Positions 19,890 to 53,820 of a stretch of 64,000 nt of DNA are shown piece by piece; position 1 is the first letter of the stretch; each line of letters begins with the position of its first letter. Made by a program: the position numbers and the translations under genes. The stretch is from Bacillota bacterium. GTDB lineage: Bacteria; Bacillota; Clostridia; TANB77; CAG-508. The stretch is from assembly GCA_963929915.1 (NCBI GenBank), contig CAWVJY010000008.1, positions 226,705 to 290,704 on the forward strand, in the 5' to 3' direction. The notes under the pieces are model-generated. The model saw only the letters and a list, made by a program, of their open reading frames with translations, searched no databases and had not been told where the DNA came from.

Positions 19890-19942
19890 ATATTACAATT
19901 ATATTACAAATATATTACAATAATATTAAATTATGATTACAA
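19890..19942 (+). promoter_or_regulatory. Phased TATTACAA array upstream of the sepF promoter
   Basis: TATTACAAT / TATTACAAA / TATTACAAT at exact 11-bp spacing, plus GATTACAAA. TTGACA at 19955-19960 follows. Confidence 0.5.
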
Positions 19943-20582: not shown

Positions 20583-21032
20583 ATGCTAACCCCTTTAGAT
20601 ATTGAGAACAAAAAATTTTCAAAACAAATGATGAATGGATATAGTGTAGAAGAAGTAGACGACTTTCTAGATGAATTAACAGCAGACTACGAAAAAATAT
20701 ATAAAGAAGTTGCAGAAGCAAAAAATAAAATAGAAGATTTACAAGAAAGTATGGAAAAATATAAAAATATCGAAGGAACTTTACAAAATACTTTGGTAAT
20801 GGCACAATCTGCAGCAGATGAGGTAAAAAGGCTTGCAAAACAACAAGCTGAGCAAATGATTAATGAAGCACAAGCAACTGCCAAACAAGCTGTTACAGAA
20901 TTAGAACAAGAATTAACTTTAAAGAAAAAAGAAATGGAAGAAGTACAAAAACAATTTGATGTTTACAAAGCAAAAATGGAATCTCTTTTAATTTCACAAT
21001 TAGAGTTATTAAAAGATGTGAATAAGGACTAA
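20583..21032 (+). CDS. divIVA: DivIVA-domain cell-division protein
   Basis: MLTPLDIENKKFSKQMMNGYSVEEVDDFLDEL is the canonical DivIVA N-terminus, followed by a coiled coil. Confidence 0.9.
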   Translation: MLTPLDIENKKFSKQMMNGYSVEEVDDFLDELTADYEKIYKEVAEAKNKIEDLQESMEKYKNIEGTLQNTLVMAQSAADEVKRLAKQQAEQMINEAQATAKQAVTELEQELTLKKKEMEEVQKQFDVYKAKMESLLISQLELLKDVNKD

Positions 21033-21048
21033 GAGAATGTAAAAAGTG

Positions 21049-21079
21049 GAGATAGCTTTTAAATGCTATCTCTATTTTT
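21049..21079 (+). terminator. Terminator after divIVA
   Basis: GAGATAGC-TTTTAAAT-GCTATCTC followed by TATTTTT. Confidence 0.7.
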
Positions 21080-21090
21080 AGCTATTATAA

Positions 21091-21273
21091 TATTCAAAGT
21101 AAATATATTACAACGTTTGACCTTGGTGTCGCAATTTCCTATATTGTGCAAGAAAATCTACGATTTTCTGCACATACTAGCATGAAAATTGCTCCAATTC
21201 GCACTTCGTGGCACAGCCACTCCGTTTGGTCGCTTACGCGGTCTACACTTTTGTAATATATTTACTTTGAATA
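21091..21273. repeat. Hairpin-closed element A (23-bp perfect arms, 137-nt GC-richer structured core)
   Basis: Arms TATTCAAAGTAAATATATTACAA (21091-21113) and TTGTAATATATTTACTTTGAATA (21251-21273). The core contains the sub-hairpins GTGCAAGAAAATC/GATTTTCTGCAC and GTGGC-ACA-GCCAC, and the motif TGGTCGCTTACGC. Confidence 0.7.
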
Positions 21274-21349
21274 AATTGCTTAGTACTAAAATTCATTGAA
21301 AAAATTACTTTACTTTTACAAATACTTGTTATATAATACAACTAGAAAA

Positions 21350-21402
21350 ATATTACAATTATTTAACATTATTACAATTGCATTAAGAAAATATTACAAT
21401 TG
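21350..21402 (+). promoter_or_regulatory. TATTACAATT(G) triplet array upstream of the rsmD promoter
   Basis: Copies start at 21351, 21370 and 21392 (about two helical turns apart). TTGACA at 21414-21419 and TAAAAT at 21436-21441 follow. Confidence 0.5.
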
Positions 21403-21464
21403 TGTTAAAAATATTGACATATTAGCTAAAAACTATAAAATAGAAGTATATCATAAGAGGTACT

Positions 21465-22025
21465 ATGAGAGTAATTAGTGGAACAGCAAGAGGAACAAAA
21501 TTAAATTCAATTCAAGAATTGTCTACAAGGCCAACATTAGATAGAGTAAAAGAATCTTTATTTAACATTTTACAACCTAATATCCAAGAAGATTCTGTTA
21601 TTTTAGATTTGTTTTCAGGAAGTGGAGCTATTGCAATTGAATTTTTAAGTAGAGGTGCCGAAAAAGCCTATTTTTGTGAAAAAAATCAGTTGGCAGTAAA
21701 AATGATATACTCCAATTTAGAAAAAACAAAGCTAACAGAAAAAGCAGTTATTATTAAAAAAGACTATAAAAAAGCTTTAGAAATTTTACAGCAGGAAAAG
21801 GTAAAATTGGATTTTGTTTATATCGATCCACCTTATGAAGCGAATATTGCAGTTGATGCTGCAGAAAGAATTTTGTCACTAAATTTACTAAATGAAAAAG
21901 GAAACCTAATCATAGAAACCGATGATGAGAAACGAGAATTACTCGAATTGAAAGAATTAAATGTAGATGTTTATGATATAAGAAAATATGGAAGAGTGAG
22001 TCTTATATTCTTAAGAAAAAAGTAG
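21465..22025 (+). CDS. rsmD: 16S rRNA (guanine966-N2)-methyltransferase RsmD
   Basis: MRVISGTARGTKL...RPTLDRVKESLFNIL...DLFSGSG...YIDPPY. Confidence 0.9.
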   Translation: MRVISGTARGTKLNSIQELSTRPTLDRVKESLFNILQPNIQEDSVILDLFSGSGAIAIEFLSRGAEKAYFCEKNQLAVKMIYSNLEKTKLTEKAVIIKKDYKKALEILQQEKVKLDFVYIDPPYEANIAVDAAERILSLNLLNEKGNLIIETDDEKRELLELKELNVDVYDIRKYGRVSLIFLRKK

Positions 22026-25138: not shown

Positions 25139-26692
25139 ATGGATAAAAAGGAAAAAATACTTAAAAAGCTTCATATAACAGATTATACAAATCGCTTAGA
25201 GAAGGTTTTGGAAAAAAAGAAATTTTCTTTCGATACCAAAAATCTTCTTTTAAGCATGTTCTATAAAATAGAAAATGGATATCAAGATTATCAAAAAACA
25301 AAAGTACAAGTAGAAAATAAAGAAGATTTTTTTGAAAAAATACTCCAAATCATTGATAAAAAATGTGAAGAAATTATTACCACCAAAGATGTTTTAGTAG
25401 ATGAAAAAAAGCAAAAAGTAGATTTTATGGTAGATAAAGAAAAAGGAAAAATCGTAGCTTTAGGAAATGAATTTGTTTTATTAAACGCTATTTTAGTACT
25501 AGGAGAAAAAGAAATTTGTTTTCCAGAAGAAGAAAAGCTTTTACAAACACCATTTACAGCCTTTTTTAATTTAGGACTAAGAATGCATGAAACAGAAGTA
25601 ATTCGAGATTTTAATGGCTGGTCATGGGATATTGTTACAAAAGATATTACCAATATTCCTGTAAATCTTATCTTCCAAAGTTTTCTATATTTACTAGGGC
25701 AAGATTTTATGGCTCAATGGATAAATAATAAGAGTGAATTAGCAGATTATTTTATGTTAGCTGCTGAGAACATGAAACAAAACTTTGGAGAAGAAAGAAG
25801 TAAAAAAATAGTATCTCTATTTTGTAAATTAGTGATAGAGATTGTGGCAGAACAGGATGAAACACAAGCAACTTTATGGAAAAAGTTAAAAAAGGAAAAT
25901 AAAATAGAATTAGAAAAATTAAGTAATAAGCCAAAATTTCTAGAAGAAATTACCAAAGAAAAAAAGGAAATCACCAAAAAAATTGAAAAAATTGATAAAA
26001 TCATGAATAATAAGATTCTTTTACAACAGGAGTATGAAGAAAGAAATGAAAAATTACCTAATAAAGAGAAGATTTTTAGTATTAGGCATTTAACCAATCG
26101 TTTAGTAGAAGAAAGACAAGAACTAGTTGAGAAAATGAAACAAAGCAACAATTTAATTGATCCAAAAGAATATGTTGCTCGTAAGGAAAAAGTAGAAAAA
26201 AGGGTAGAGTTTTTAGATAGTTTAGATTTAGAAAATAAAACAGATAGAAGAGAAGCGTTATTACAACTATGTATACTATTCTTAGAATGTTTTGAAATCA
26301 AAACCATTAAAGCACAAAAAAAGGAAGAAGTCATTCATTATTTTTACGAATTAAGATATTATCGCTTTTTACCTTTTGAAGAAGAAGTGAAACTAAAAGA
26401 AATAGAAAAATTAAATCATATTTTTGAAAAAGAAATATCATTATTAATAGAAAAAGCACAAAAAATGGCAATTATTGATGAAGTTACGGCAGATAAAGAA
26501 ATTAATCAAAAAATCATTGGAAACTTATTTAATAGTAAATTAATTGATTTAAATCATTTAATTATTGAAACAAAAGTAGAAGAAGGCAAATTATATGCAG
26601 AATATTATGATACTAATATTTTAGAAAATGTTGTAGAAGTACAAAGCAATAGAACGGTGAAACTAAAGAAAAAGACAAAATTGTTTCTTTAG
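25139..26692 (+). CDS. Hypothetical K/E-rich protein (517 aa)
   Basis: Long ORF with an SD AAAGGTGG. No motif recognised. The stop codon abuts REP1. Confidence 0.6.
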   Translation: MDKKEKILKKLHITDYTNRLEKVLEKKKFSFDTKNLLLSMFYKIENGYQDYQKTKVQVENKEDFFEKILQIIDKKCEEIITTKDVLVDEKKQKVDFMVDKEKGKIVALGNEFVLLNAILVLGEKEICFPEEEKLLQTPFTAFFNLGLRMHETEVIRDFNGWSWDIVTKDITNIPVNLIFQSFLYLLGQDFMAQWINNKSELADYFMLAAENMKQNFGEERSKKIVSLFCKLVIEIVAEQDETQATLWKKLKKENKIELEKLSNKPKFLEEITKEKKEITKKIEKIDKIMNNKILLQQEYEERNEKLPNKEKIFSIRHLTNRLVEERQELVEKMKQSNNLIDPKEYVARKEKVEKRVEFLDSLDLENKTDRREALLQLCILFLECFEIKTIKAQKKEEVIHYFYELRYYRFLPFEEEVKLKEIEKLNHIFEKEISLLIEKAQKMAIIDEVTADKEINQKIIGNLFNSKLIDLNHLIIETKVEEGKLYAEYYDTNILENVVEVQSNRTVKLKKKTKLFL

Positions 26693-26736
26693 GGACGGTT
26701 CTCAGTGGCCCCATTTGGGGTCACTTGGGACACTTC
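26692..26736 (+). repeat. REP element copy 1 (orientation A)
   Basis: GGGACGGTTCTCAGTGGCCCCATTTGGGGTCACTTGGGACACTTC, with the central hairpin AGTGGCCCC/GGGGTCACT. Confidence 0.85.
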
Positions 26737-26836
26737 ATTAAAAAGAGAAAGATTAAAAATTATTACTATTAACCAAAGACCAAAATATAAAATATAATAC
26801 AAATTATAATTTTTTAGGAGAGGATTGAAATTAAAT

Positions 26837-28486
26837 ATGAAAATTACCTTTTTAGGAGCTACCAAAACTGTAACAGGTTCCAACTTTTTAGTAGAAGGGG
26901 CAGGAAAAAAGTTTTTAGTGGATTGTGGAATGTATCAAGGCAGTAGTAAAGACGAAATGAAAAATAGTGAGCCATTTCCATTTGATGTAAAAGATATTGA
27001 TTTTATGTTATTAACACATGCCCATATTGATCATTCTGGAAGAATTCCAAAGTTATATGTAGAAGGATATCGTAATCCAGTTATTACTACGAAGGCTACC
27101 AGAGATCTTTGCTCTATTATGTTACCAGACAGTGGACATATTCAAGAACAAGAAATTGGATGGCGAAACAAAAAAAGAATGAGAGAAGGTAAAGAAGCCC
27201 TACCTCCTTTATATACAGCAGAAGATGCCATCCATACTATGGAAATTTTTAAACCAGTCAATTATGATGAAATTGTAGAAATTGACCCAAATATTCAAGT
27301 ACGTTTTAATGATGCAGGACATATGCTAGGTTCTGCCATTATTGAAGTATGGGTAACAGAAAATGGAAAACAAACCAAAGCAGTATTTACGGGAGATTTA
27401 GGTAATAATGATATTCCACTATTATCTTCTCCTACGATGATAGAAACAGCCGATTACTTAGTAATGGAATCTACTTATGGTAGTAGACTTCATATGAGAA
27501 ATGACGATAAAGCCAGCCTATTTTTAGATATTGTTTCCGAAACATTAGATAAAGGTGGAACTGTTGTTATCCCGTCTTTTGCAGTAGGAAGAACCCAAGA
27601 AATTTTATATGAAATTAACAATTTAAAAGATGAACACCAAGATGAAGAATTTAAAAAGAAATATCAAACTTTAATGAGGGTACCTGTTTATGTAGATAGC
27701 CCACTTGCTATTTCTGCTACAGAAATTTTTAAGGAAAATGCTAACTTATTTGATGAAGAAACCCAAGCAATTATTCAAAGAGGAGATAATCCTTTAGAGT
27801 TTCCAGGTTTACAGTTTACTAGAACTGCAGATGAGTCAAAAGCATTAAATGAAAAGAAAGAGTCTGCTATCATTATTTCTGCTAGTGGTATGTGTGAAGT
27901 AGGTAGAATTAAACATCATTTAAAACATCATTTGTGGGATCCGAACAGCACTATTCTATTTGTTGGTTACCAAGCACCTGGAACTTTAGGTAGAAAGCTA
28001 GTAGACGGCGAAAAAATGGTAAGAATTTTTGGAGAAGAAATTGCAGTAAATGCAAGAATAGAATATATAGAAGGCTATTCTGGTCATGCTGACCAAGAAT
28101 GGTTATTAAACTTTATATATTCTTTTATTACAAAGCCAAAACATATCTTTTTAGTACATGGAGAAATAGAAAGTCAAGAAGTATTAAAAGAAAAAATATT
28201 AGAAAATGTGAGCATTCCTGTTACCATTCCAGATTATGGCCAAACTTATACATTAGATGAAAACTTAACAATGGAACAAACGGTAGAGCCGGTTTGTGAA
28301 GAAATAGTAGCAAGAAGAGATATTTTAGAAAAAATGAAGACACTTAAAGAAGAACTAGAAGATATGGAAACGATTATCAAAGAGGAATACTTTACAAAAA
28401 ATCCAAGCGATTCTAGTATGAATCTTTTAAAACTAAGATTAAATGAAATAGAAGATCAAATTGTAAAAATAGTAGAAAAAAGCTAA
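26837..28486 (+). CDS. MBL-fold / beta-CASP RNA-metabolising hydrolase (RNase J/CPSF-like)
   Basis: MKITFLGATKTVTGS, HAHIDHSG (HxHxDH), ESTYG, and GHADQ...VHGE at the C-terminus. Confidence 0.85.
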   Translation: MKITFLGATKTVTGSNFLVEGAGKKFLVDCGMYQGSSKDEMKNSEPFPFDVKDIDFMLLTHAHIDHSGRIPKLYVEGYRNPVITTKATRDLCSIMLPDSGHIQEQEIGWRNKKRMREGKEALPPLYTAEDAIHTMEIFKPVNYDEIVEIDPNIQVRFNDAGHMLGSAIIEVWVTENGKQTKAVFTGDLGNNDIPLLSSPTMIETADYLVMESTYGSRLHMRNDDKASLFLDIVSETLDKGGTVVIPSFAVGRTQEILYEINNLKDEHQDEEFKKKYQTLMRVPVYVDSPLAISATEIFKENANLFDEETQAIIQRGDNPLEFPGLQFTRTADESKALNEKKESAIIISASGMCEVGRIKHHLKHHLWDPNSTILFVGYQAPGTLGRKLVDGEKMVRIFGEEIAVNARIEYIEGYSGHADQEWLLNFIYSFITKPKHIFLVHGEIESQEVLKEKILENVSIPVTIPDYGQTYTLDENLTMEQTVEPVCEEIVARRDILEKMKTLKEELEDMETIIKEEYFTKNPSDSSMNLLKLRLNEIEDQIVKIVEKS

Positions 28487-28605: not shown

Positions 28606-30585
28606 ATGAAAAATAAATATTATAATAATGCTATTATTGGGGGAAAAAACATTACAGCAAGTTATAGTAAAACAGGAGAATTGTTAAGGGTTATGTATCC
28701 AAATCCAGATTTTAGAAGTTGGATAGATGAATTTTTAACTGGTGTTAAAATTAATGATTCTGGAATGATTTATTTACATGAAGATTGCAATAATCAATAT
28801 CATCAATATTATACTGAAAATACCAATATTTTAAAAACTGAAATTTTAAATACCTATTTTCAATTACAAATTAAGCAAACCGATTTTGCCTTACTAAAAA
28901 ATAGCATATTGGTAAAAAAGTATGAATTTGAAAACAAAAATAATATTGATTTAAAAGTAAATTTTTTAGTACATAGTAAACTCTTATCAGATACCAATAA
29001 TATGGTAGGAAGTGAAGTAAAATATAATACACTAATTCAATATTGCCACGACTATTGTCTTTACCTTTTTTCACCATCTTCTTTATTAAGTTATCAATTA
29101 AATGATACTAAAGAAAATATTGGAAGTGGAGAAATTTATGATAAAGACTATATAGGTATGTCTTGTGATTCTAGTATTAGTTATGATATTGGAATTCTAA
29201 AACCAGGAGAAAAGAAAGAATTAGTGCTTTATTTGTATTTTAAAAATAATACGACAGCAGATATAGGAACAGAAAAAATAAGTAGTAAACAATTAGAAGA
29301 ACAGTTACTAAAAGAAATAGCCGAAATAAAAAAGATAGATGTACAAAAAGAAGAACAAGATGTAGAAAAATACTGGAAAAAATATGTAAAAGAACATTTA
29401 ACCATTCCTTTAAAACCAGAAACAAATACTTTTCATAAAAAATGGAACCAAATTTATCAAAGAAGCATTTTATTATTTCCTTTATTAATCAACCAAGAAA
29501 CAGGGGGAATTAGTGCAACTGTAGAAGTTGATGAAAATATGACACAATGTGGAAGATATGCCTATTGCTGGCCAAGAGATGCAGTATGGATTACCAAAGC
29601 ATTAGATTTGCTAAAAATGACAAAGGAAACGGAAAAATTTTATAAAATCTTCTGCAAAGAAACCCAAAGTAAAAATGGAATGTGGGAACAAAGATTTTAT
29701 ACAGATGGAAAATTAGCACCTTGTTGGGGATATCAAATTGATGAAACAGCCAGTGTTATTTATGGAGTTTATGAACATTATAAGGTAGTAAAAGATGCTA
29801 AATTTTTAAAAGACACTTATAAAATGTGTGAAAATGCTGCAAAGTTTTTAGGAATTTATTTAGATAATGTGTTAGGCACAAAAGATGAATCAGATGTGGT
29901 AAAAAAAGAAATAGAAGAAACTTACCATACAGAGGGAAGAAATAAATTGCCAGTTAGTTATGATTTATGGGAAATGCATGAAGGAGTACATTTATATTCC
30001 TTATCTGCTATTTATGCAGCCTTTGAAGCAATGAAACAAATTCATATTGTTTTAAAACCAAGTTATGAACAAAATAATCGACTAAAAGTAGAAGCAATGA
30101 ACAAACTAGAAGCCAAAATGATAAAATATCAGGAAGAAATTAAAAAGTATATACTTGCCAACTTATATGACGAAAACACTAAAACTTTTTCTAGAAACTT
30201 AAATGATAATCGTACAGATATTAGTGAACTTGGAATGATAGTACCATTTGCTTTGTTTTCTGCAAAAGAAAAAAAGGTACAAAATACTATTGAAAAAATC
30301 AATATGACATTAAGAACTTATACAGGAGGATACTTAAGATTCGAGCAAGATCATTACCGTGGTGGAACAAGTCCATGGCCAATAGCTACTTTATGGATGG
30401 CAATGTACTATCAGAAGGCTGGAGAAAGAAAAAAAGCAAAAGAATGTATCGAATTTGTTGTAAATTCTGCCAATGAACACGGCTTACTAGGTGAGCAAGT
30501 AGACAACCAAACTATGCAGCCGAATTGGGCAATTGGCTTACGGATGGGCCCATGCTATGTTTGTTTTGGGGACGGTTCTCACTGA
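28606..30585 (+). CDS. Glycoside hydrolase family 15 (glucoamylase/glucodextranase-like)
   Basis: CWPRDAVWITKAL, WEQRFYTDG, YQIDETASVIYG, DLWEMHEG, PWPIATLWMAMYY, GLLGEQV. The 3' end runs into REP2, and the expected W-AHAMFV motif is out of frame (possible indel near 30540). Confidence 0.85.
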   Translation: MKNKYYNNAIIGGKNITASYSKTGELLRVMYPNPDFRSWIDEFLTGVKINDSGMIYLHEDCNNQYHQYYTENTNILKTEILNTYFQLQIKQTDFALLKNSILVKKYEFENKNNIDLKVNFLVHSKLLSDTNNMVGSEVKYNTLIQYCHDYCLYLFSPSSLLSYQLNDTKENIGSGEIYDKDYIGMSCDSSISYDIGILKPGEKKELVLYLYFKNNTTADIGTEKISSKQLEEQLLKEIAEIKKIDVQKEEQDVEKYWKKYVKEHLTIPLKPETNTFHKKWNQIYQRSILLFPLLINQETGGISATVEVDENMTQCGRYAYCWPRDAVWITKALDLLKMTKETEKFYKIFCKETQSKNGMWEQRFYTDGKLAPCWGYQIDETASVIYGVYEHYKVVKDAKFLKDTYKMCENAAKFLGIYLDNVLGTKDESDVVKKEIEETYHTEGRNKLPVSYDLWEMHEGVHLYSLSAIYAAFEAMKQIHIVLKPSYEQNNRLKVEAMNKLEAKMIKYQEEIKKYILANLYDENTKTFSRNLNDNRTDISELGMIVPFALFSAKEKKVQNTIEKINMTLRTYTGGYLRFEQDHYRGGTSPWPIATLWMAMYYQKAGERKKAKECIEFVVNSANEHGLLGEQVDNQTMQPNWAIGLRMGPCYVCFGDGSH

Positions 30586-30613
30586 CCCCTAATGGGGCCA
30601 CTTGGGACACATC
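30569..30613 (+). repeat. REP element copy 2 (orientation A), left flank of the RAYT gene
   Basis: GGGACGGTTCTCACTGACCCCTAATGGGGCCACTTGGGACACATC. Confidence 0.85.
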
Positions 30614-30753
30614 ATATCATCTGAATTAACTCAAATGAAAAAAGAATCATAAATAATTTTAACAAGTACTTGCAAAATTATAAAAAATATGAGAAGATGT
30701 AAAAGAGAGAGAATTATAAAAAAGAGGGGCACTATCGGAGAAAGGAGGCAATT

Positions 30754-31571
30754 ATGCCTAGAAAACCAAGAGATAGGAGTCCCTCTAATTGTTACCATAT
30801 CATTACCAGAGGAATTAATAAGCAAGATATTTTCTTTGATAACAATGATAAGGCCAAACTTCTTAAAGAAATAAGTAGAACAAAAGAAAAATATGAATAT
30901 GAATTATATGCTTATGTTCTAATGCCAAATCATATTCATTTACTAATTAAAGAAAATACTCATTCGATTTCTGAAATTATGAGAAGTCTTTTGATAAGTT
31001 ATGCTGAATATATTAACAAGAAATATGATAGGATTGGATATGTCTTTCAGAATCGATTTACTAGTAGACCAGTTGAAAACGATATTTATTTTAGAAATGT
31101 GGTACGTTATATTCATTTAAACCCACAAAAAGCCGGAATTTCTATATATAGTCAATATAAATGGAGTCAGTTACCAAGATTATTGCAAAGACAATAATAG
31201 TCTGGTTGATGTAGAAAAAGGAAAAAAATAGATTTGAGAATATAAACGGAAACTTTGAAGAATCTTTTGAAAAATTTCATAATGAACAACTAAATGATAG
31301 TATAGAAGAAGAAATTATGGAGTATGAAATAAAAAGTGTGTTGGAAGATGAGGATTTATATAGAATTTTGAAAGAAAAAATAGGAGAACAAGAAATACAT
31401 AATCTTCACCGATATCAAAAAAAATATCGAAATAAAGTACTGATGCAGATATTGAAAATAAAAGGTACAAATTGTGCTCAAATTTCAAGAGTGACAGGAA
31501 TTAGTAAAAAACTAATTAAGAAAGCTAGAGAACAATTTTTAAAGAATAAACCGAAAATTAAAATAGTATAA
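30754..31571 (+). pseudogene. REP-associated Y1/HUH (IS200-like, RAYT-type) transposase with a C-terminal HTH; two frameshifts as written
   Basis: YHIITRG, the HUH motif PNHIHLL, FQNRFTS and the catalytic-Tyr region RYIHLNP. The frame moves +1 near 31170 (continuing YQDYCKDNNSLVDVEKGKK) and again in the A-run 31222-31228. It then joins ORF 31317-31571, which carries an HTH (GTNCAQISRVTGISKKLIKKA). Confidence 0.8.
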
Positions 31572-31595
31572 TTTGAATAGATTGGAGGAAATGGA

Positions 31596-31640
31596 GAAGT
31601 GTCCCAACTGACCCCTTTTGGGGTCACTGAGAACCGTCCC
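31596..31640 (-). repeat. REP element copy 3 (orientation B), right flank of the RAYT gene
   Basis: GAAGTGTCCCAACTGACCCCTTTTGGGGTCACTGAGAACCGTCCC, the reverse complement of the REP1/2 consensus. Confidence 0.85.
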
Positions 31641-31648
31641 CAGAAAAC

Positions 31649-33062
31649 ATGAAAGCAAAAACAATTTTTGTATGTAGTAATTGTGGATATGAATCACCAA
31701 AATGGCTAGGAAAATGCCCAGGTTGTAATGAGTGGAATAGTTTTTATGAAGAGAAATTAGCTATGCAAACAGGTTCAGGAAAACAGACAGAAAAGAAAGT
31801 AGTTACTCCTAAATCATTAAATGAAGTAGTAGGAAAAGATGCTATTCGTATCCACACTGGAATTGGAGAATTAGATAGAGTTCTAGGGGGAGGTTTAGTA
31901 AAAGGTTCTTTAGTATTAGTAGGAGGAGAACCTGGAATTGGTAAATCTTACTCTTATTTGGAACTTTGCGATAAAATGCAGGCAGAAGGAAAAGTTCTTT
32001 ATGTTTCAGGAGAAGAGTCTGCTGAACAAATAAAATTAAGGCAGATCGACTTGGAATCCACAATGACGACATTTTATTTTTAGGAGAAACTGATATTTCA
32101 CTTATAGAAAATACAATATTAGAATTAAAACCAAAATTAGTTATTATTGATTCTATTCAAACAATGTATTCTGAAGATATTTCTTCGGCGGCAGGAACAG
32201 TAAGCCAAGTTCGCGAGATTACAGCTCGTATTATGCGTATTTGCAAAGGAAATGAAATTACTACTATTATTATTGGTCATGTAACAAAAGAAGGAAATAT
32301 TGCAGGACCTAGAGTTTTAGAACATATGGTAGATACTGTACTTTATCTAGAAGGCGAAAGGTATTTTTCTTATCGAGTTTTGCGTGGCGTTAAAAATCGT
32401 TTTGGGCTCTACCAACGAAGTAGGGATGTTTGAAATGCAAAATGAGGGAATGGTAGAAATAACAAATCCTTCTTCTGTATTAATTTCAGAAAGGGAGGAT
32501 AATCCTTCAGGTTCTGTTATTATTGCAAGTATGGAGGGAACTAGACCTTTGTTAATAGAATTACAGGCATTAACGACACCGACTGTATTTGGTTTTCCGC
32601 GTAGAACAGCCAATGGAATTGATTATAACAGGCTTACTTTGTTAGTTGCAGTACTAGAAAAAAGGGCTGGACTTGCATTAAGTTCACAAGATGTGTATTT
32701 AAATGTAGTAAGTGGAATCAGAATTGTAGAACCTGCTGCAGACCTAGGCATGATTTTAGCTTGTTGTTCTAGTTTTAAAAATACTAGTATTCCTAAAAGT
32801 ACAGTTGTTATTGGAGAAGTACGGATTAACAGGAGAGGTAAGAGCAGTAAATTTAATAGAAAAAAGATTAAAAGAAGCGGAAAAATTAGGATTTAAAACT
32901 TGTATTATACCAGAAAGTAATAAAAAACTATTGAAAGATAAGTACAAGTTAGATATAATAGGGGTTAGAAATGTAAATGAGGCGATGAAAAGTAGTGGGG
33001 CTAAAGTAAAAGTTAAGAAATTTAGTGAAGTGTCCCAAGTGGCCCCATTTGGGGCTACATAG
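31649..33062 (+). CDS. radA: DNA repair protein RadA; three frameshifts as written
   Basis: Zinc ribbon CSNCGYESPKWLGKCPGCNEW, Walker A GGEPGIGKS, KNRFG, and a Lon-like C-terminal domain. The four track ORFs (31649, 32164, 32384, 32805) are consecutive pieces, with indels near 32040, 32408 and 32819. The last codons lie inside REP4. Confidence 0.85.
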
Positions 33063-33071
33063 AACCGTCCC
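33027..33071 (-). repeat. REP element copy 4 (orientation B)
   Basis: GAAGTGTCCCAAGTGGCCCCATTTGGGGCTACATAGAACCGTCCC. Confidence 0.85.
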
Positions 33072-33087
33072 TAGAAAGGAAAATGTG

Positions 33088-37828: not shown

Positions 37829-37977
37829 TATAAAAGGAATAGAATTGTCTTTTTCAATTTTTAAAACCTTTCCCCTTTTGGACATCTGTAACTCGGCGTA
37901 AACGCCTCGAACAGCTGTCACAATGGTCGCCCACGCAAGGCTTAAAAATTTCAAAAGACAATTCTATTCCTTTTATA
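37829..37977. repeat. Hairpin-closed element B1 (25-bp perfect arms; core shared with B2)
   Basis: Arms TATAAAAGGAATAGAATTGTCTTTT (37829-37853) and AAAAGACAATTCTATTCCTTTTATA (37953-37977). The GC-richer core carries the nested stem GACATCTGT/ACAGCTGTC and the apical hairpin GGCG-TAAA-CGCC. Confidence 0.8.
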
Positions 37978-37987
37978 TTTAATACTT

Positions 37988-38075
37988 TATTACAATTATA
38001 TTACAAATATATTAAATTTATATTACAAACAAAGAACTTATTGTTTTTAGACGAAAAATGTTGTACAATAAATTA
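37988..38075 (+). promoter_or_regulatory. TATTACAA array plus putative promoter of the pilus operon
   Basis: TATTACAATTATATTACAAATATATTA is identical to the 19891 array, and there is a third TATTACAAA at 38021. It is followed by TTGTTT...TGtTGTACAAT (extended -10) about 50 bp before cpaB-like. Confidence 0.5.
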
Positions 38076-38114: not shown

Positions 38115-39065
38115 ATGGCAAAGAACCCAATGCAAAGAAAAGCTCAAAATTCATTTCTTTTAGGAATGTTAATCACATTATTAATAACAGGAATTATTAT
38201 TGCTGTTTTAGTAATACAACTTACTAAAATAACAAGAGAACAAAATGAGGCAAAAGCAAATTTAAAACAGGTTTATGTATTAACACAAGATGTTAATTCA
38301 GGAGATACTGTTACTACCGATATATTAACATTACAAGCAATGGACGCAAGTACTATTCCATCCAATGCACTAAGTTTAGCAGAACTAACTGCTAAAAGCG
38401 ATATTGTAGACGAAAATGGTAATCTTATTCAAAAAATGAATGTTGTTAGTAAAATAGATTTGAAACAAGGAACAATTATTACTTCTGATATGATTGCAGT
38501 ACAAGATGAATTAGCAGCAGATTTAAGAAAAGTAGAATATAATATGATTGTTCTTCCAACACAGTTACAAGATGGCAAATATATTGATATTCGTTTAAAA
38601 TTACCAACAGGAGAGGATTTTATTGTAATTTCCCATAAACAAGTAGAAATTCCTACTGTTGAAGGAATAGATTCTTTAAATAGTATTTGGTTAAACTTAG
38701 ATGAAACAGAAATTTTAACTTTAAGTTGTGCTATTGTAGAATCTTATCAAATTCAAGGTTCTCTACTATATATAACTGAATATGTGGAACCAGGCTTACA
38801 AGAAGCAGCTACTGCAACTTATTTACCAAACGATTCAACTATTAATTTAATTAACCGTGATCCTAACTGTGTAGCAGAAGCTAAAAATGCATTATTTGAA
38901 AGAAATAATAATCAGAGCACTAAAAATTCAGTTAGAAATCCTGTTAATAATAATTTAAATAATAATGCAGAAGATGCAATTGATAATGTTATTGACAATG
39001 TAGAAGAAGAAATTAGAAAAACGCAAGAAGAAAGACAAACTTATTTAGAGTCGTTAGGTGGATAA
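38115..39065 (+). CDS. CpaB/RcpC-like Flp/Tad pilus assembly protein (TM helix plus SAF-like domain)
   Basis: A basic N-terminus plus a TM helix, then VYVLTQDVNSGDTVTTDIL (SAF-type strand pattern). First gene of the operon, with SD AAGGAGG. Confidence 0.65.
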   Translation: MAKNPMQRKAQNSFLLGMLITLLITGIIIAVLVIQLTKITREQNEAKANLKQVYVLTQDVNSGDTVTTDILTLQAMDASTIPSNALSLAELTAKSDIVDENGNLIQKMNVVSKIDLKQGTIITSDMIAVQDELAADLRKVEYNMIVLPTQLQDGKYIDIRLKLPTGEDFIVISHKQVEIPTVEGIDSLNSIWLNLDETEILTLSCAIVESYQIQGSLLYITEYVEPGLQEAATATYLPNDSTINLINRDPNCVAEAKNALFERNNNQSTKNSVRNPVNNNLNNNAEDAIDNVIDNVEEEIRKTQEERQTYLESLGG

Positions 39066-50886: not shown

Positions 50887-51034
50887 TGCGTTCTCCTCTA
50901 ACTTCTATTTTTCCGTTCCATCCCTACTTCCTAACAGACTTTAAATAAAATTTTATTTTATAAAATTTTATAAAAGTCTGTAAGTCGCTGGTCCCCACAG
51001 CCTCACTACAAAATAGAAGTTAGAGGAGAACGCA
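50887..51034. repeat. Hairpin-closed element C (25-bp perfect arms)
   Basis: Arms TGCGTTCTCCTCTAACTTCTATTTT (50887-50911) and AAAATAGAAGTTAGAGGAGAACGCA (51010-51034). The inner stem is ACAGACTTT/AAAGTCTGT around an AT palindrome. The C-rich internal loop carries GGTCCCCACAGCC. Confidence 0.75.
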
Positions 51035-52461: not shown

Positions 52462-53601
52462 AAAAGAAATAAAAACATAAAAATTTTAATTATTTTGCTG
52501 TGTATTATAATGGCTGTTATCTTAGGCTGTTTAATTTATATTTCCATTGGGATTAATCATTCTCCTAGTACAAATGAGCTAGAAAATATACAGCAAAATG
52601 AACCAACTACATCAACAGAACCACAAAATAATGTAATAGAAAATGTAGAACAACAAAATATAGTAGAACCAATTTTAAATGAAATTACAAATCCTCAAAA
52701 CAATCAAACTAGTCAAGAAGTAATTTCTTCTACTTATTATTATGGACAGTTAGATGATAATGCCAAAATTATTTATGATGCTTTAAAAGAAAATAAGGAA
52801 AATATGAAAACAGGAACCTATGAGCTAGATTTTGAAACTCAGTTTAATACACTTTTACATACAGAAACAGGAGAACAAGAATTACAAACGGCTTTTCAAT
52901 CAGCCTGGAATGCTTATTCTTATGATCAAGCAGATTTATTTTACATAGATTCACAAAAACTAACCTTAATGAATGAATATGTTAATGTAGGAGGAATAGT
53001 AACTTATCATATTTCTATAGGACCAGGAGAAAATGAAAACTATTTATTAGATACTTTTCAAGAAGCAGGAAGTATAGAACAAGCAGAAAGTTATATTCAA
53101 AATATTGTAGACCAAATTGTGGAACAAACGCAAAATGACTCTGTAGTGGAAAAGGCAAGAAGAATTCACAATTGGTTAGTAAGCTCAGTAAGCTATGAAG
53201 AATCTGAAGAAAATAAAAATCGTTTTGAAATTTATGGAGCACTTCATGACCAAAGGGCAGTTTGTGAAGGATATGCCAGAAGTTTTAAATATTTAATGGA
53301 AAAAGTAGGAGTCCCTTGTGTTTTAGTGTCTGGAACGGGAACTAATTCAGAAGGAAAATCAGAAAGCCATGCATGGAATTACATGCAAGTGAATAATGAG
53401 TGGTATGCAGTAGATGTTACATGGGATGACCCTGTAGTAGTGGGAGGAGAAACTCCAGGTACAAATACTTTATATCGTTACTTTTTAAAAGGATCAGAAG
53501 AATTTTACAAAGACCATAAAGAAGAAAATATTATTTCAGAAAATAGTATGAGTTTTAGATTTCCTACATTATCTACAACAGACTATGAGTTAGATTTTTA
53601 A
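52462..53601 (+). CDS. Membrane-anchored transglutaminase-like (cysteine-protease-fold) protein
   Basis: AVCEGYARSFKYLMEKVGVPCVLVSG...HAWNYMQVNNEWYAVDVTWDD is the Cys-His-Asp transglutaminase-core pattern. Confidence 0.8.
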   Translation, partial: KRNKNIKILIILLCIIMAVILGCLIYISIGINHSPSTNELENIQQNEPTTSTEPQNNVIENVEQQNIVEPILNEITNPQNNQTSQEVISSTYYYGQLDDNAKIIYDALKENKENMKTGTYELDFETQFNTLLHTETGEQELQTAFQSAWNAYSYDQADLFYIDSQKLTLMNEYVNVGGIVTYHISIGPGENENYLLDTFQEAGSIEQAESYIQNIVDQIVEQTQNDSVVEKARRIHNWLVSSVSYEESEENKNRFEIYGALHDQRAVCEGYARSFKYLMEKVGVPCVLVSGTGTNSEGKSESHAWNYMQVNNEWYAVDVTWDDPVVVGGETPGTNTLYRYFLKGSEEFYKDHKEENIISENSMSFRFPTLSTTDYELDF

Positions 53602-53820
53602 AATAAGAAACTGTTCTAAAATAGAATAAATTTATTTTAAAAAAGTATTAGGATTGTCTTTTTCAATTTTTAAAGCCTTTCCCCTTTTGGACATCTGTAC
53701 CTCGGCATAAATGCCTCGAACAGCTGTCACAATGGTCGCCCACGCAAGGCATAAAAATCTCAAAAGACAATCCTAATACTTTTATTATACATTATATATT
53801 TTTAGGACAGTTTCTTATTT
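53601..53820. terminator. Outer bidirectional terminator-type hairpin whose loop is occupied by element B2
   Basis: AAATAAGAAACTGTTCTAAAA (53601-53621) pairs with TTTTAGGACAGTTTCTTATTT (53800-53820), 20 of 21 bp. It lies between the convergent transglutaminase-like gene and murC. Confidence 0.6.
53641..53783. repeat. Hairpin-closed element B2 (copy of B1)
   Basis: Arms AAAAGTATTAGGATTGTCTTTT and AAAAGACAATCCTAATACTTTT. The core is nearly identical to B1, and the differences are compensatory. Confidence 0.8.

Follow-up and report, generated by a model that had tools for sequence, protein, structure and literature searches.

A hairpin-closed, GC-richer element in a hypervariable slot between divIVA and rsmD of an uncultured gut Clostridium

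Element A and the divIVA-rsmD slot

The stretch of DNA analysed here (64 kb, hereafter the window) has a GC content of 0.29 and carries nearly all of its genes on the plus strand. Its lineage is one of uncultured human-gut Clostridia, the nearest species representative to the sequence being "uncultured Clostridium sp. MGYG-HGUT-04078". Between divIVA and rsmD lies a hairpin-closed element, A, of 183 bp, or roughly 217 bp when its private flanks are counted. The features of this interval are as follows (arms, core and hairpins of A being given without strand).

20583..21032, plus strand: divIVA, the upstream gene (open reading frame; Pfam DivIVA on an identical protein)
21042..21079, plus strand: intrinsic (bidirectional) terminator of divIVA, hairpin and T-run (inverted repeat; terminator scan; kept in relatives without A)
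21091..21113: left arm of A, TATTCAAAGTAAATATATTACAA (inverted-repeat search)
21114..21250: core of A, 137 nt, 45% GC, with nested helices
21117..21145, plus strand: promoter-like TTGACC-17-TATATT (10/12) within the core, facing rsmD
21131-21137 / 21186-21192: helix GCAATTT / AAATTGC, enclosing the innermost hairpin
21146..21173: innermost hairpin, GTGCAAGAAAATC (21146-21158) / GATTTTCTGCAC (21162-21173), with one bulged A
21208..21220: small hairpin GTGGC-ACA-GCCAC (GTGGC 21208-21212, GCCAC 21216-21220)
21227..21239, plus strand: motif TGGTCGCTTACGC
21251..21273: right arm of A, TTGTAATATATTTACTTTGAATA (inverted-repeat search)
21296..21464, plus strand: conserved promoter region of rsmD, the right-hand boundary of the variable slot
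21465..22025, plus strand: rsmD (16S rRNA m2G966 methyltransferase), the downstream gene

The original prediction, made from the window alone, held that divIVA owns a conventional terminator, and a hairpin with the stem GAGATAGC/GCTATCTC followed by a T-run is indeed found at 21042-21079, with A starting 11 bases past it. Because this terminator is kept where A is absent, A is dispensable for termination, as had also been proposed. On the other side of A, the conserved promoter region of rsmD (AAAAATTACTTTAC...) marks the right edge of the slot; it contains promoter-like sites at 21309-21337 and 21414-21441 as well as ATATTACAA boxes at 21350, 21370 (a variant) and 21391. A sits in transcriptionally dead space, past a functional terminator and ahead of the rsmD promoters, and rsmD retains its own conserved promoter beside it.

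The ATATTACAA box is over-represented (11 copies against 2.9 expected), with sites at 19890-19920, 21350-21399 and 37988-38028 and also at 21105-21113 and 21251-21259 within the arms of A. Its arrays are phased by 11 bp and lie just 5′ of the -35 boxes of the sepF operon, of rsmD and of the gene at 38115, and the rsmD array is kept in relatives of as low as 78% identity. On the opposite strand the arrays read TGTAAT-N5-TGTAAT-N5-TGTAAT, which fits the WalR consensus, TGTWAH-N5-TGTWAH (PMC9210968).

The architecture originally described for A was borne out. The two arms are 23 nt long, 100% complementary and 137 nt apart, the composition of the core is foreign to its surroundings (GC 0.45 against 0.29 in the window and 0.15-0.25 in the flanks), and all three predicted internal helices are present, giving a multi-hairpin architecture. 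The whole element folds at -61.7 kcal/mol (z = -8.7), with 0/200 shuffles folding as well. It is equally stable on the minus strand (z = -8.0) and with DNA parameters (z = -8.1) because nearly all of its helices are perfectly Watson-Crick paired. Taken alone, the core has only modest structure, with z = -2.75 (plus strand) and -2.64 (minus strand), and folds better than 198-199 of 200 shuffles. On the plus strand, and there alone, the motif TGGTCGCTTACGC can fold as GGUCGC-UUAC-GCGGUC, two of whose pairs are G-U.

Six-frame translation and the list of open reading frames gave nothing convincing as coding potential in A, the longest frame wholly inside the core being 36 aa, and no independent promoter or terminator of its own was found; promoter-like sites around A are not above chance (6 found against 3.2 +/- 1.7 expected). 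Within the left arm, the 17 nt next to the core (AAGTAAATATATTACAA) include one TGTAAT/ATTACA box, and the inner part of each arm equals a unit of the local regulatory boxes, matching 19908-19920 at 13/13 nt.

Among relatives, A was found, essentially identical (one SNP), in 8 contigs from 7 samples, which had been gathered via identical DivIVA or RsmD, and its orientation is uniform in all eight of these consensus assemblies. Other contigs have other occupants in the same place:

RsmD 95-96% (L015-18 and the closest species-representative MAG, L023): A absent; terminator retained, then ~66 unrelated nt, then the conserved rsmD promoter region (divIVA-rsmD spacer of 276 nt, against 432 in the window)
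RsmD 92% (L011-14): A absent; a different filler of ~370 nt, including a 24-codon open reading frame
RsmD 78-81% (L025, L067, L070): A absent; own terminator and a spacer of 220-240 nt
Identical DivIVA (L004 type): slot filled by a cassette of 2.1 kb that carries a pilin-like gene of 452 aa

No A-like element was found in the orthologous slot at 95, 92, 81, 79, 78 or 61-66% RsmD identity. At least four unrelated alleles make the slot hypervariable, and A is a lineage-specific insertion, the occupant of this slot in one clade. Some of the other occupants are of interest in themselves. The ~370 nt of the 92% clade (L011:3438-4000) contain a terminator hairpin, and their 24-codon frame reads MFYFNYNKGNGNSGFDFCAVLVAI; the 452-aa protein of the cassette (L004:3451-5540) has a pilin-type N-terminal methylation motif. 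At 66% RsmD identity (L026:2860-3160) there is a multi-level nested hairpin of ~210 nt with arms of 22 and 20 nt and inner palindromes, flanked by a further inverted repeat (GTTACAGGTCAGGTGG... / ...CCACCTGAACTGTAAC) and lacking the motif.

How did A come to occupy this slot? A TA dinucleotide stands at its two outer ends, within the palindrome, which is compatible with a TA target duplication, and no target-site duplication is demonstrable, the flanks differing from those of the empty-site allele. Since the A-less allele differs over the whole slot, neither the boundaries of A nor an origin of its arms from local sequence can be fixed. An origin of the arms by inverted copying of the target was rejected, as their alignment to the empty-site allele is not significant (p ~0.27). 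This result also bears on the idea that A is a functionless, immobile by-product, namely foreign or rearranged DNA whose flanks arose from replication template-switching or inverted duplication at a recombination hot spot. Such an origin would suit the multiplicity of alleles in the slot, the single copy of A, the perfection of the arms, which is expected of a young duplication, and the identity of their inner part with the local box unit. However, besides the lack of significant similarity between the arms and the empty site, it leaves unexplained the three nested helix levels and the analogy with elements B and C described below, and we consider it unlikely.

Relatives, sister elements and family B

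At the gathering threshold of Rfam 15 the window yields two tRNAs only and A is unmatched, a permissive scan of 20900-21500 gave chance matches only (E >= 5), and for A, B and C nothing appeared beyond generic long-hairpin (miRNA precursor) matches. Blastn of A against phage and plasmid collections gave either none or chance matches at E >= 0.6. An exact 22-mer of the core is absent from the JGI metagenome contigs, a 17-mer of A matches in IMG/VR only a GC-rich phage, by chance, and local blastn against the window and ~0.6 Mb of related loci found no second copy. A has terminal inverted repeats, as a MITE does, and is bounded by repeats in the range of those of invertons (about 10-40 bp); multiple dispersed copies, also a MITE trait, were not found in the window, the related loci, JGI, IMG/VR, phages or plasmids. 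For the proposal that A is a mobile hairpin, its presence or absence between clades speaks in favour and the failure to find a second copy against. That A is single copy and without homologs in all data searched tells against the original prediction in general, but the prediction is not refuted outright because the insertion is polymorphic. A literature search found no paper on the sequence of the motif and nothing specific on terminator-loop MITEs in Clostridia. A retron, an integron attC site, a dif/Xer site and 6S RNA were dropped on general knowledge, there being no reverse transcriptase or cassette context, motif match or Rfam match.

Other mobile or repeated sequences occur in the window. 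An IS30-type insertion sequence (1502-2696) encodes a 351-aa transposase (1611-2666) with HTH_38 and rve domains and has imperfect terminal repeats of 41 nt (1502-1542 / 2656-2696), with TTCAATAATATT on both sides. An IS200-like element (30565-31646) contains a gene for a Y1 (HUH) transposase (30754-31197, Pfam Y1_Tnp), and imperfect palindromes rich in GC (GGGACGGTTCTCAGTGGCCCC-ATTT-GGGGTCAC...) border this gene in inverted orientation. Two more copies of the palindrome, at 26688-26738 and 33022-33072, abut or overlap the stop codons of other genes; to judge by its layout, this would be a REPtron/RAYT-like arrangement. As a cognate of A, both the IS30-like and the IS200-like element were rejected, their ends being unrelated to it, and no insertion sequence with terminal repeats matching A was found in the window. 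Four tandem paralogous genes at 45036-47480, which constitute the repeat families D3 and D4, share a conserved hydrophobic N-terminus (MENASKALIIAG...) and have no Pfam domains. A 21-nt inverted repeat with a 40-nt GC-richer spacer (28051-28132) lies inside a 553-aa open reading frame and is conserved in a 92% relative (L024:10261-10342).

The window holds three further hairpin-closed elements with GC-richer cores, all just past gene ends:

37829-37977: B1, with 36-nt arms
53641-53783: B2, with 32-nt arms
50887-51034: C, with 25-nt perfect arms

B2 lies within a terminator-like inverted repeat (53601-53621 / 53800-53820), so placed that it makes up the loop of a stop-to-stop repeat (53601-53820) between convergent genes. 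C adjoins spoIVB, 59 nt upstream.

B1 and B2 belong to a family with members elsewhere. An exact 20-mer of the B core has six real copies in other low-GC metagenome contigs and a covariance model added a seventh, the copies outside the window being L032:6178-6326, L032:905-1051, L033:1-122, L035:391-537, L036:1129-1277, L037:3469-3617 and L038:2264-2412; the family is absent from Rfam and IMG/VR. It is a hairpin of ~150 nt with an apical domain of 66 nt that is almost invariant (UCCCCUUUUGGACAUCUGUAACUCGGCAUAAAUGCCUCGAACAGCUGUCACAAUGGUCGCCCACGC) and a stem of ~45 bp, in which 13 pairs are changed on both sides among 8 copies from different organisms. The exceptions to pairing are G-U in 4 cases and A-C in 6, and since the two are about equally frequent the pairs do not indicate the strand. 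Recombination between the arms would homogenise them, which offers an alternative to RNA-level selection for these "compensatory" changes. Seven of the eight copies stand 8-48 nt past a stop codon in sense orientation; the elements are flanked by A- and U-tracts, and several sit in the loop of a terminator-like hairpin that encloses them. That the variable outer stems are host terminator stems was rejected, for they are homologous between copies (GGATTAGAA, GCATTAGGAA, GTATTAGGA). Family B could represent either a module that is mobile and terminator-like or a structured RNA not described before.

Is A related to these elements? The original prediction assigned one motif to A, B1, B2 and C, which did not hold up: TGGTCGCTTACGC, a 13-mer of the TGTCGCTTACGC type, is exact in A only, B1 and B2 carry TGGTCGCCCACGC with 2 mismatches (11/13), and C (TGGTCCCCACAGC) has no match at <=2 mismatches. 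A 13-mer shared at <=2 mismatches between two cores is expected by chance in ~1/6 comparisons (our own estimate, made post hoc), and its position beside the closing stem alone makes the match between A and B suggestive. The kinship of A with B and C that had been drawn from the 13-mer failed likewise, since the covariance model built from the 8 copies of B gave no match to A at E <= 10 with default filters, and with filters off only the divIVA terminator hairpin scored (19.5 bits), the motif region of A reaching 0.4 bits. Because the model does not recognise A, the shared motif is weak, and membership of A in family B was rejected. On C the same model scored 28.8 bits on the plus strand and 18.3 bits on the minus strand; with ~10 bits more on the plus strand, C may be a distant relative of B.

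These results weigh on the view that A is a structured non-coding RNA, either a divIVA 3′UTR or read-through product or a small RNA in its own right, with the closing stem as an RNase III processing stalk and the core tied to B and C via UGGUCGCYYACGC. The very stable fold, a core that beats nearly all of its shuffles, the two G-U pairs of the plus-strand motif hairpin and the location of the motif on the 3′ side of the core beside the closing stem, as in B, would all agree with it, as would the near-invariant apical domain, the compensatory pairs and the sense orientation of family B. Against it, neither Rfam threshold matched A, the B model does not align to it, the 13-mer is near what chance may give, the motif of C is antisense in most strains, and A lies past a working terminator without promoter or terminator of its own. 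Moreover, its helices are symmetric and Watson-Crick paired like those of DNA palindromes, and homologs for a covariation test were not found. The original suggestion of a stable structured RNA thus gained no positive support, and we regard this explanation as decidedly unlikely.

Inversion and the nature of element A

Comparison of the sister elements between strains revealed inversion. The 98-nt core of the window's C matches that of L039 at 98% identity as the reverse complement and at 57% without reversal; the arms and flanks around it remain collinear. Among 22 contigs (comparison loci L039-L047 and L054-L065), the window, L064 and L065 have one orientation and 19 contigs the opposite, so that in most strains the motif is on the antisense strand. 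Orientation follows clade (3 contigs '+', 19 '-'), which points to a rare fixed event, and the idea that C switches frequently was rejected. Close strains differ in whether C contains an internal piece of 63 nt, made up of a hairpin and the TGGTCCCCACAG motif and bounded by the 4-nt repeat CTGT/ACAG. At B2 of the 95% clade (L043:5448-5583 and L046), identical outer arms surround a core that is inverted as well as degenerate, with 72% identity as the reverse complement and 53% without reversal. In the 79% relative a plain terminator occupies the B2 site (L066:5922-6070) and C is absent; elsewhere in that contig (L066:3405-3490) a different inverted repeat, of 17 nt (TTGCATTTTGAATAGTA / TACTATTCAAAATGCAA), lies directly 5′ of the spoIVB ribosome-binding site. 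Elements of the A/B/C build insert, gain or lose nested hairpins and invert on evolutionary time scales.

The proposal that A itself is an invertible segment fared unevenly: the inverted cores of C and B2 and the arms of A, which resemble a known switch, speak for it indirectly, and the single orientation of A in 8/8 contigs speaks against it. The C. difficile flagellar switch is a 154-bp segment with 21-bp inverted repeats that is flipped by RecV encoded elsewhere (PMC5386303). The repeats of this switch, the RecV target Cdi4, read AAGTTACTATTTTACAAAAAA on one side and AAGTTGCTATATTACAAAAAA on the other. The arm sequence AAGTAAATATATTACAA matches the switch repeats AAGTTACTATTTTACAA and AAGTTGCTATATTACAA at 14/17 each and the published degenerate form of the repeat at 15/17, with the same core-proximal polarity. 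In the 64-kb window the two arms of A are the only matches of at least 15/17; ~0.3 such matches are expected in shuffled windows, and 5 more occur in 268 kb of relatives. The resemblance of the arms to Cdi4 (p ~1e-3) is suggestive and is not taken as proof because the over-represented ATATTACAA box supplies part of it. The cores of A and Cdi4 are unrelated. No recombinase was found among the 20 window open reading frames scanned with Pfam. The uniform orientation of A in assemblies is compatible with switching, since C. difficile switches can stand at 0.5-4% inverted (PMC5903667), a level that consensus assemblies can miss.

In a programmed inverton, the arms of A would be sites for a RecV-like tyrosine recombinase whose gene lies elsewhere in the genome, and flipping of the core would turn an internal sigma-A-type promoter, or some other signal that depends on orientation, between the rsmD-coaD-ftsK operon and divIVA. 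The dimensions of A (137 bp with 23-bp repeats) are near those of the flagellar switch, the arm matches are confined within the window to A, TTGACC-17-TATATT stands within the core, and inversion has occurred in C and B2. Nevertheless, apart from the uniform orientation and the lack of a recombinase among the frames scanned, the clade-fixed state of C makes inversion in this class look rare, and the promoter match is within chance. The location past a terminator and upstream of an intact housekeeping-operon promoter would be odd for a switch, the core, GC-rich and full of nested hairpins, differs from the AT-rich one of Cdi4, and part of the arm similarity comes from a box that is over-represented in the genome anyway. 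A programmed inverton is, in our judgment, rather unlikely.

What, then, is A? The reading we favour, tentatively, is that A may be a DNA-level non-coding foldback cassette, either MITE-like or acquired by recombination, and prone to inversion. In one clade of uncultured gut Clostridium it would have entered, or been swapped by recombination into, the slot that separates the divIVA terminator from the rsmD promoter region. Its perfect 23-bp repeats would make it a cruciform or hairpin former, and recombination between the arms could turn the core round, an event that two neighbouring elements of like architecture have undergone. In favour of this reading stand the confinement of A to one clade, its foreign composition, the other occupants of the slot, helices equally stable on either strand and with DNA parameters, the location in transcriptionally dead space, the three further elements of like build with a multi-copy family B among them, the inverted cores of C and B2, and the TA at both outer ends. 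A probably came as a mobile or recombined unit, is probably largely neutral in place, acting at most as a read-through barrier or a weak outward promoter, and is presumably no RNA gene. Against this foldback reading, the structure of the core (z ~-2.7) and arms resembling a recombinase target are unexplained by a purely selfish or neutral insert; A is single copy in all data searched, a target-site duplication is not demonstrable and a matching insertion sequence was not found in the window.

A broader view would make A, B and C one undescribed superfamily of gut Clostridia, hairpin-closed, terminator-proximal and core-flipping, with the 3′ motif UGGUC(G)CYYACRC. Its elements would insert beside or inside terminator hairpins, B being a widespread structured module and A a divergent, enlarged member with arms recognised by a RecV-like enzyme. 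We hold this view to be improbable.

By itself A matters little, being a clade-specific non-coding insert beside cell-division genes whose use lies in serving as a strain marker and a candidate inverton. Of wider significance is that a low-GC gut Clostridium lineage carries repeat-closed intergenic elements by whose insertion, nesting, inversion and loss of internal hairpins close strains differ. Family B, conserved across organisms with compensatory changes in its stem and yet missing from Rfam, is more interesting than A. Should these repeat-closed elements prove to be mobile modules resembling terminators, or switches of the RecV type, uncultured gut Firmicutes would possess a source of regulatory variation that has gone unrecognised.

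Comparison with known systems

A and family B are alike in having a long closing stem, a GC-richer core and a location just past a gene end, and also in the 11/13 match of the 3′ core motif at the same relative position. They differ in that the core of B is 66 nt with one hairpin whereas that of A is 137 nt with three, and in that family B is multi-copy and present in other organisms whereas A is single copy in all data searched.

The Correia/NEMIS, RUP, ERIC and bcr1 elements are short non-coding intergenic inserts whose terminal inverted repeats fold into long hairpins. They are found near gene ends, vary between strains and may carry a TA duplication; each family occurs in many copies and has a cognate transposase as well as terminal repeats that are conserved. 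Compared with such MITE or foldback families by description rather than by sequence, A is likewise repeat-closed, intergenic and strain-variable, but it is single copy in the data searched and no cognate insertion sequence was found. REP/BIME sequences with RAYT (IS200-like Y1) offer a likeness as palindromic intergenic elements acted on as single-stranded hairpins. The arms of A, however, are AT-rich, 23 bp long and perfect, and bear no relation to the GC-rich REP-like units (GGGACGGTTCTCAGTGGCCCC...); a blastn search of the window with A gave nothing at the REP-like sites 26688, 30565, 31596 and 33022, which sets A apart from REP/BIME.

With Cdi4, A shares the form of an intergenic segment of ~140-150 bp with 21-23-bp inverted repeats and no recombinase gene nearby (for A, among the 20 frames scanned). 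In contrast, the core of A is GC-richer and rich in nested hairpins where that of Cdi4 is AT-rich, and inversion of A, as expected of RecV-dependent invertons, was seen in 0/8 contigs. A lies behind a terminator and before an intact housekeeping promoter, whereas Cdi4-type switches occupy the 5′UTR of a surface or motility operon.
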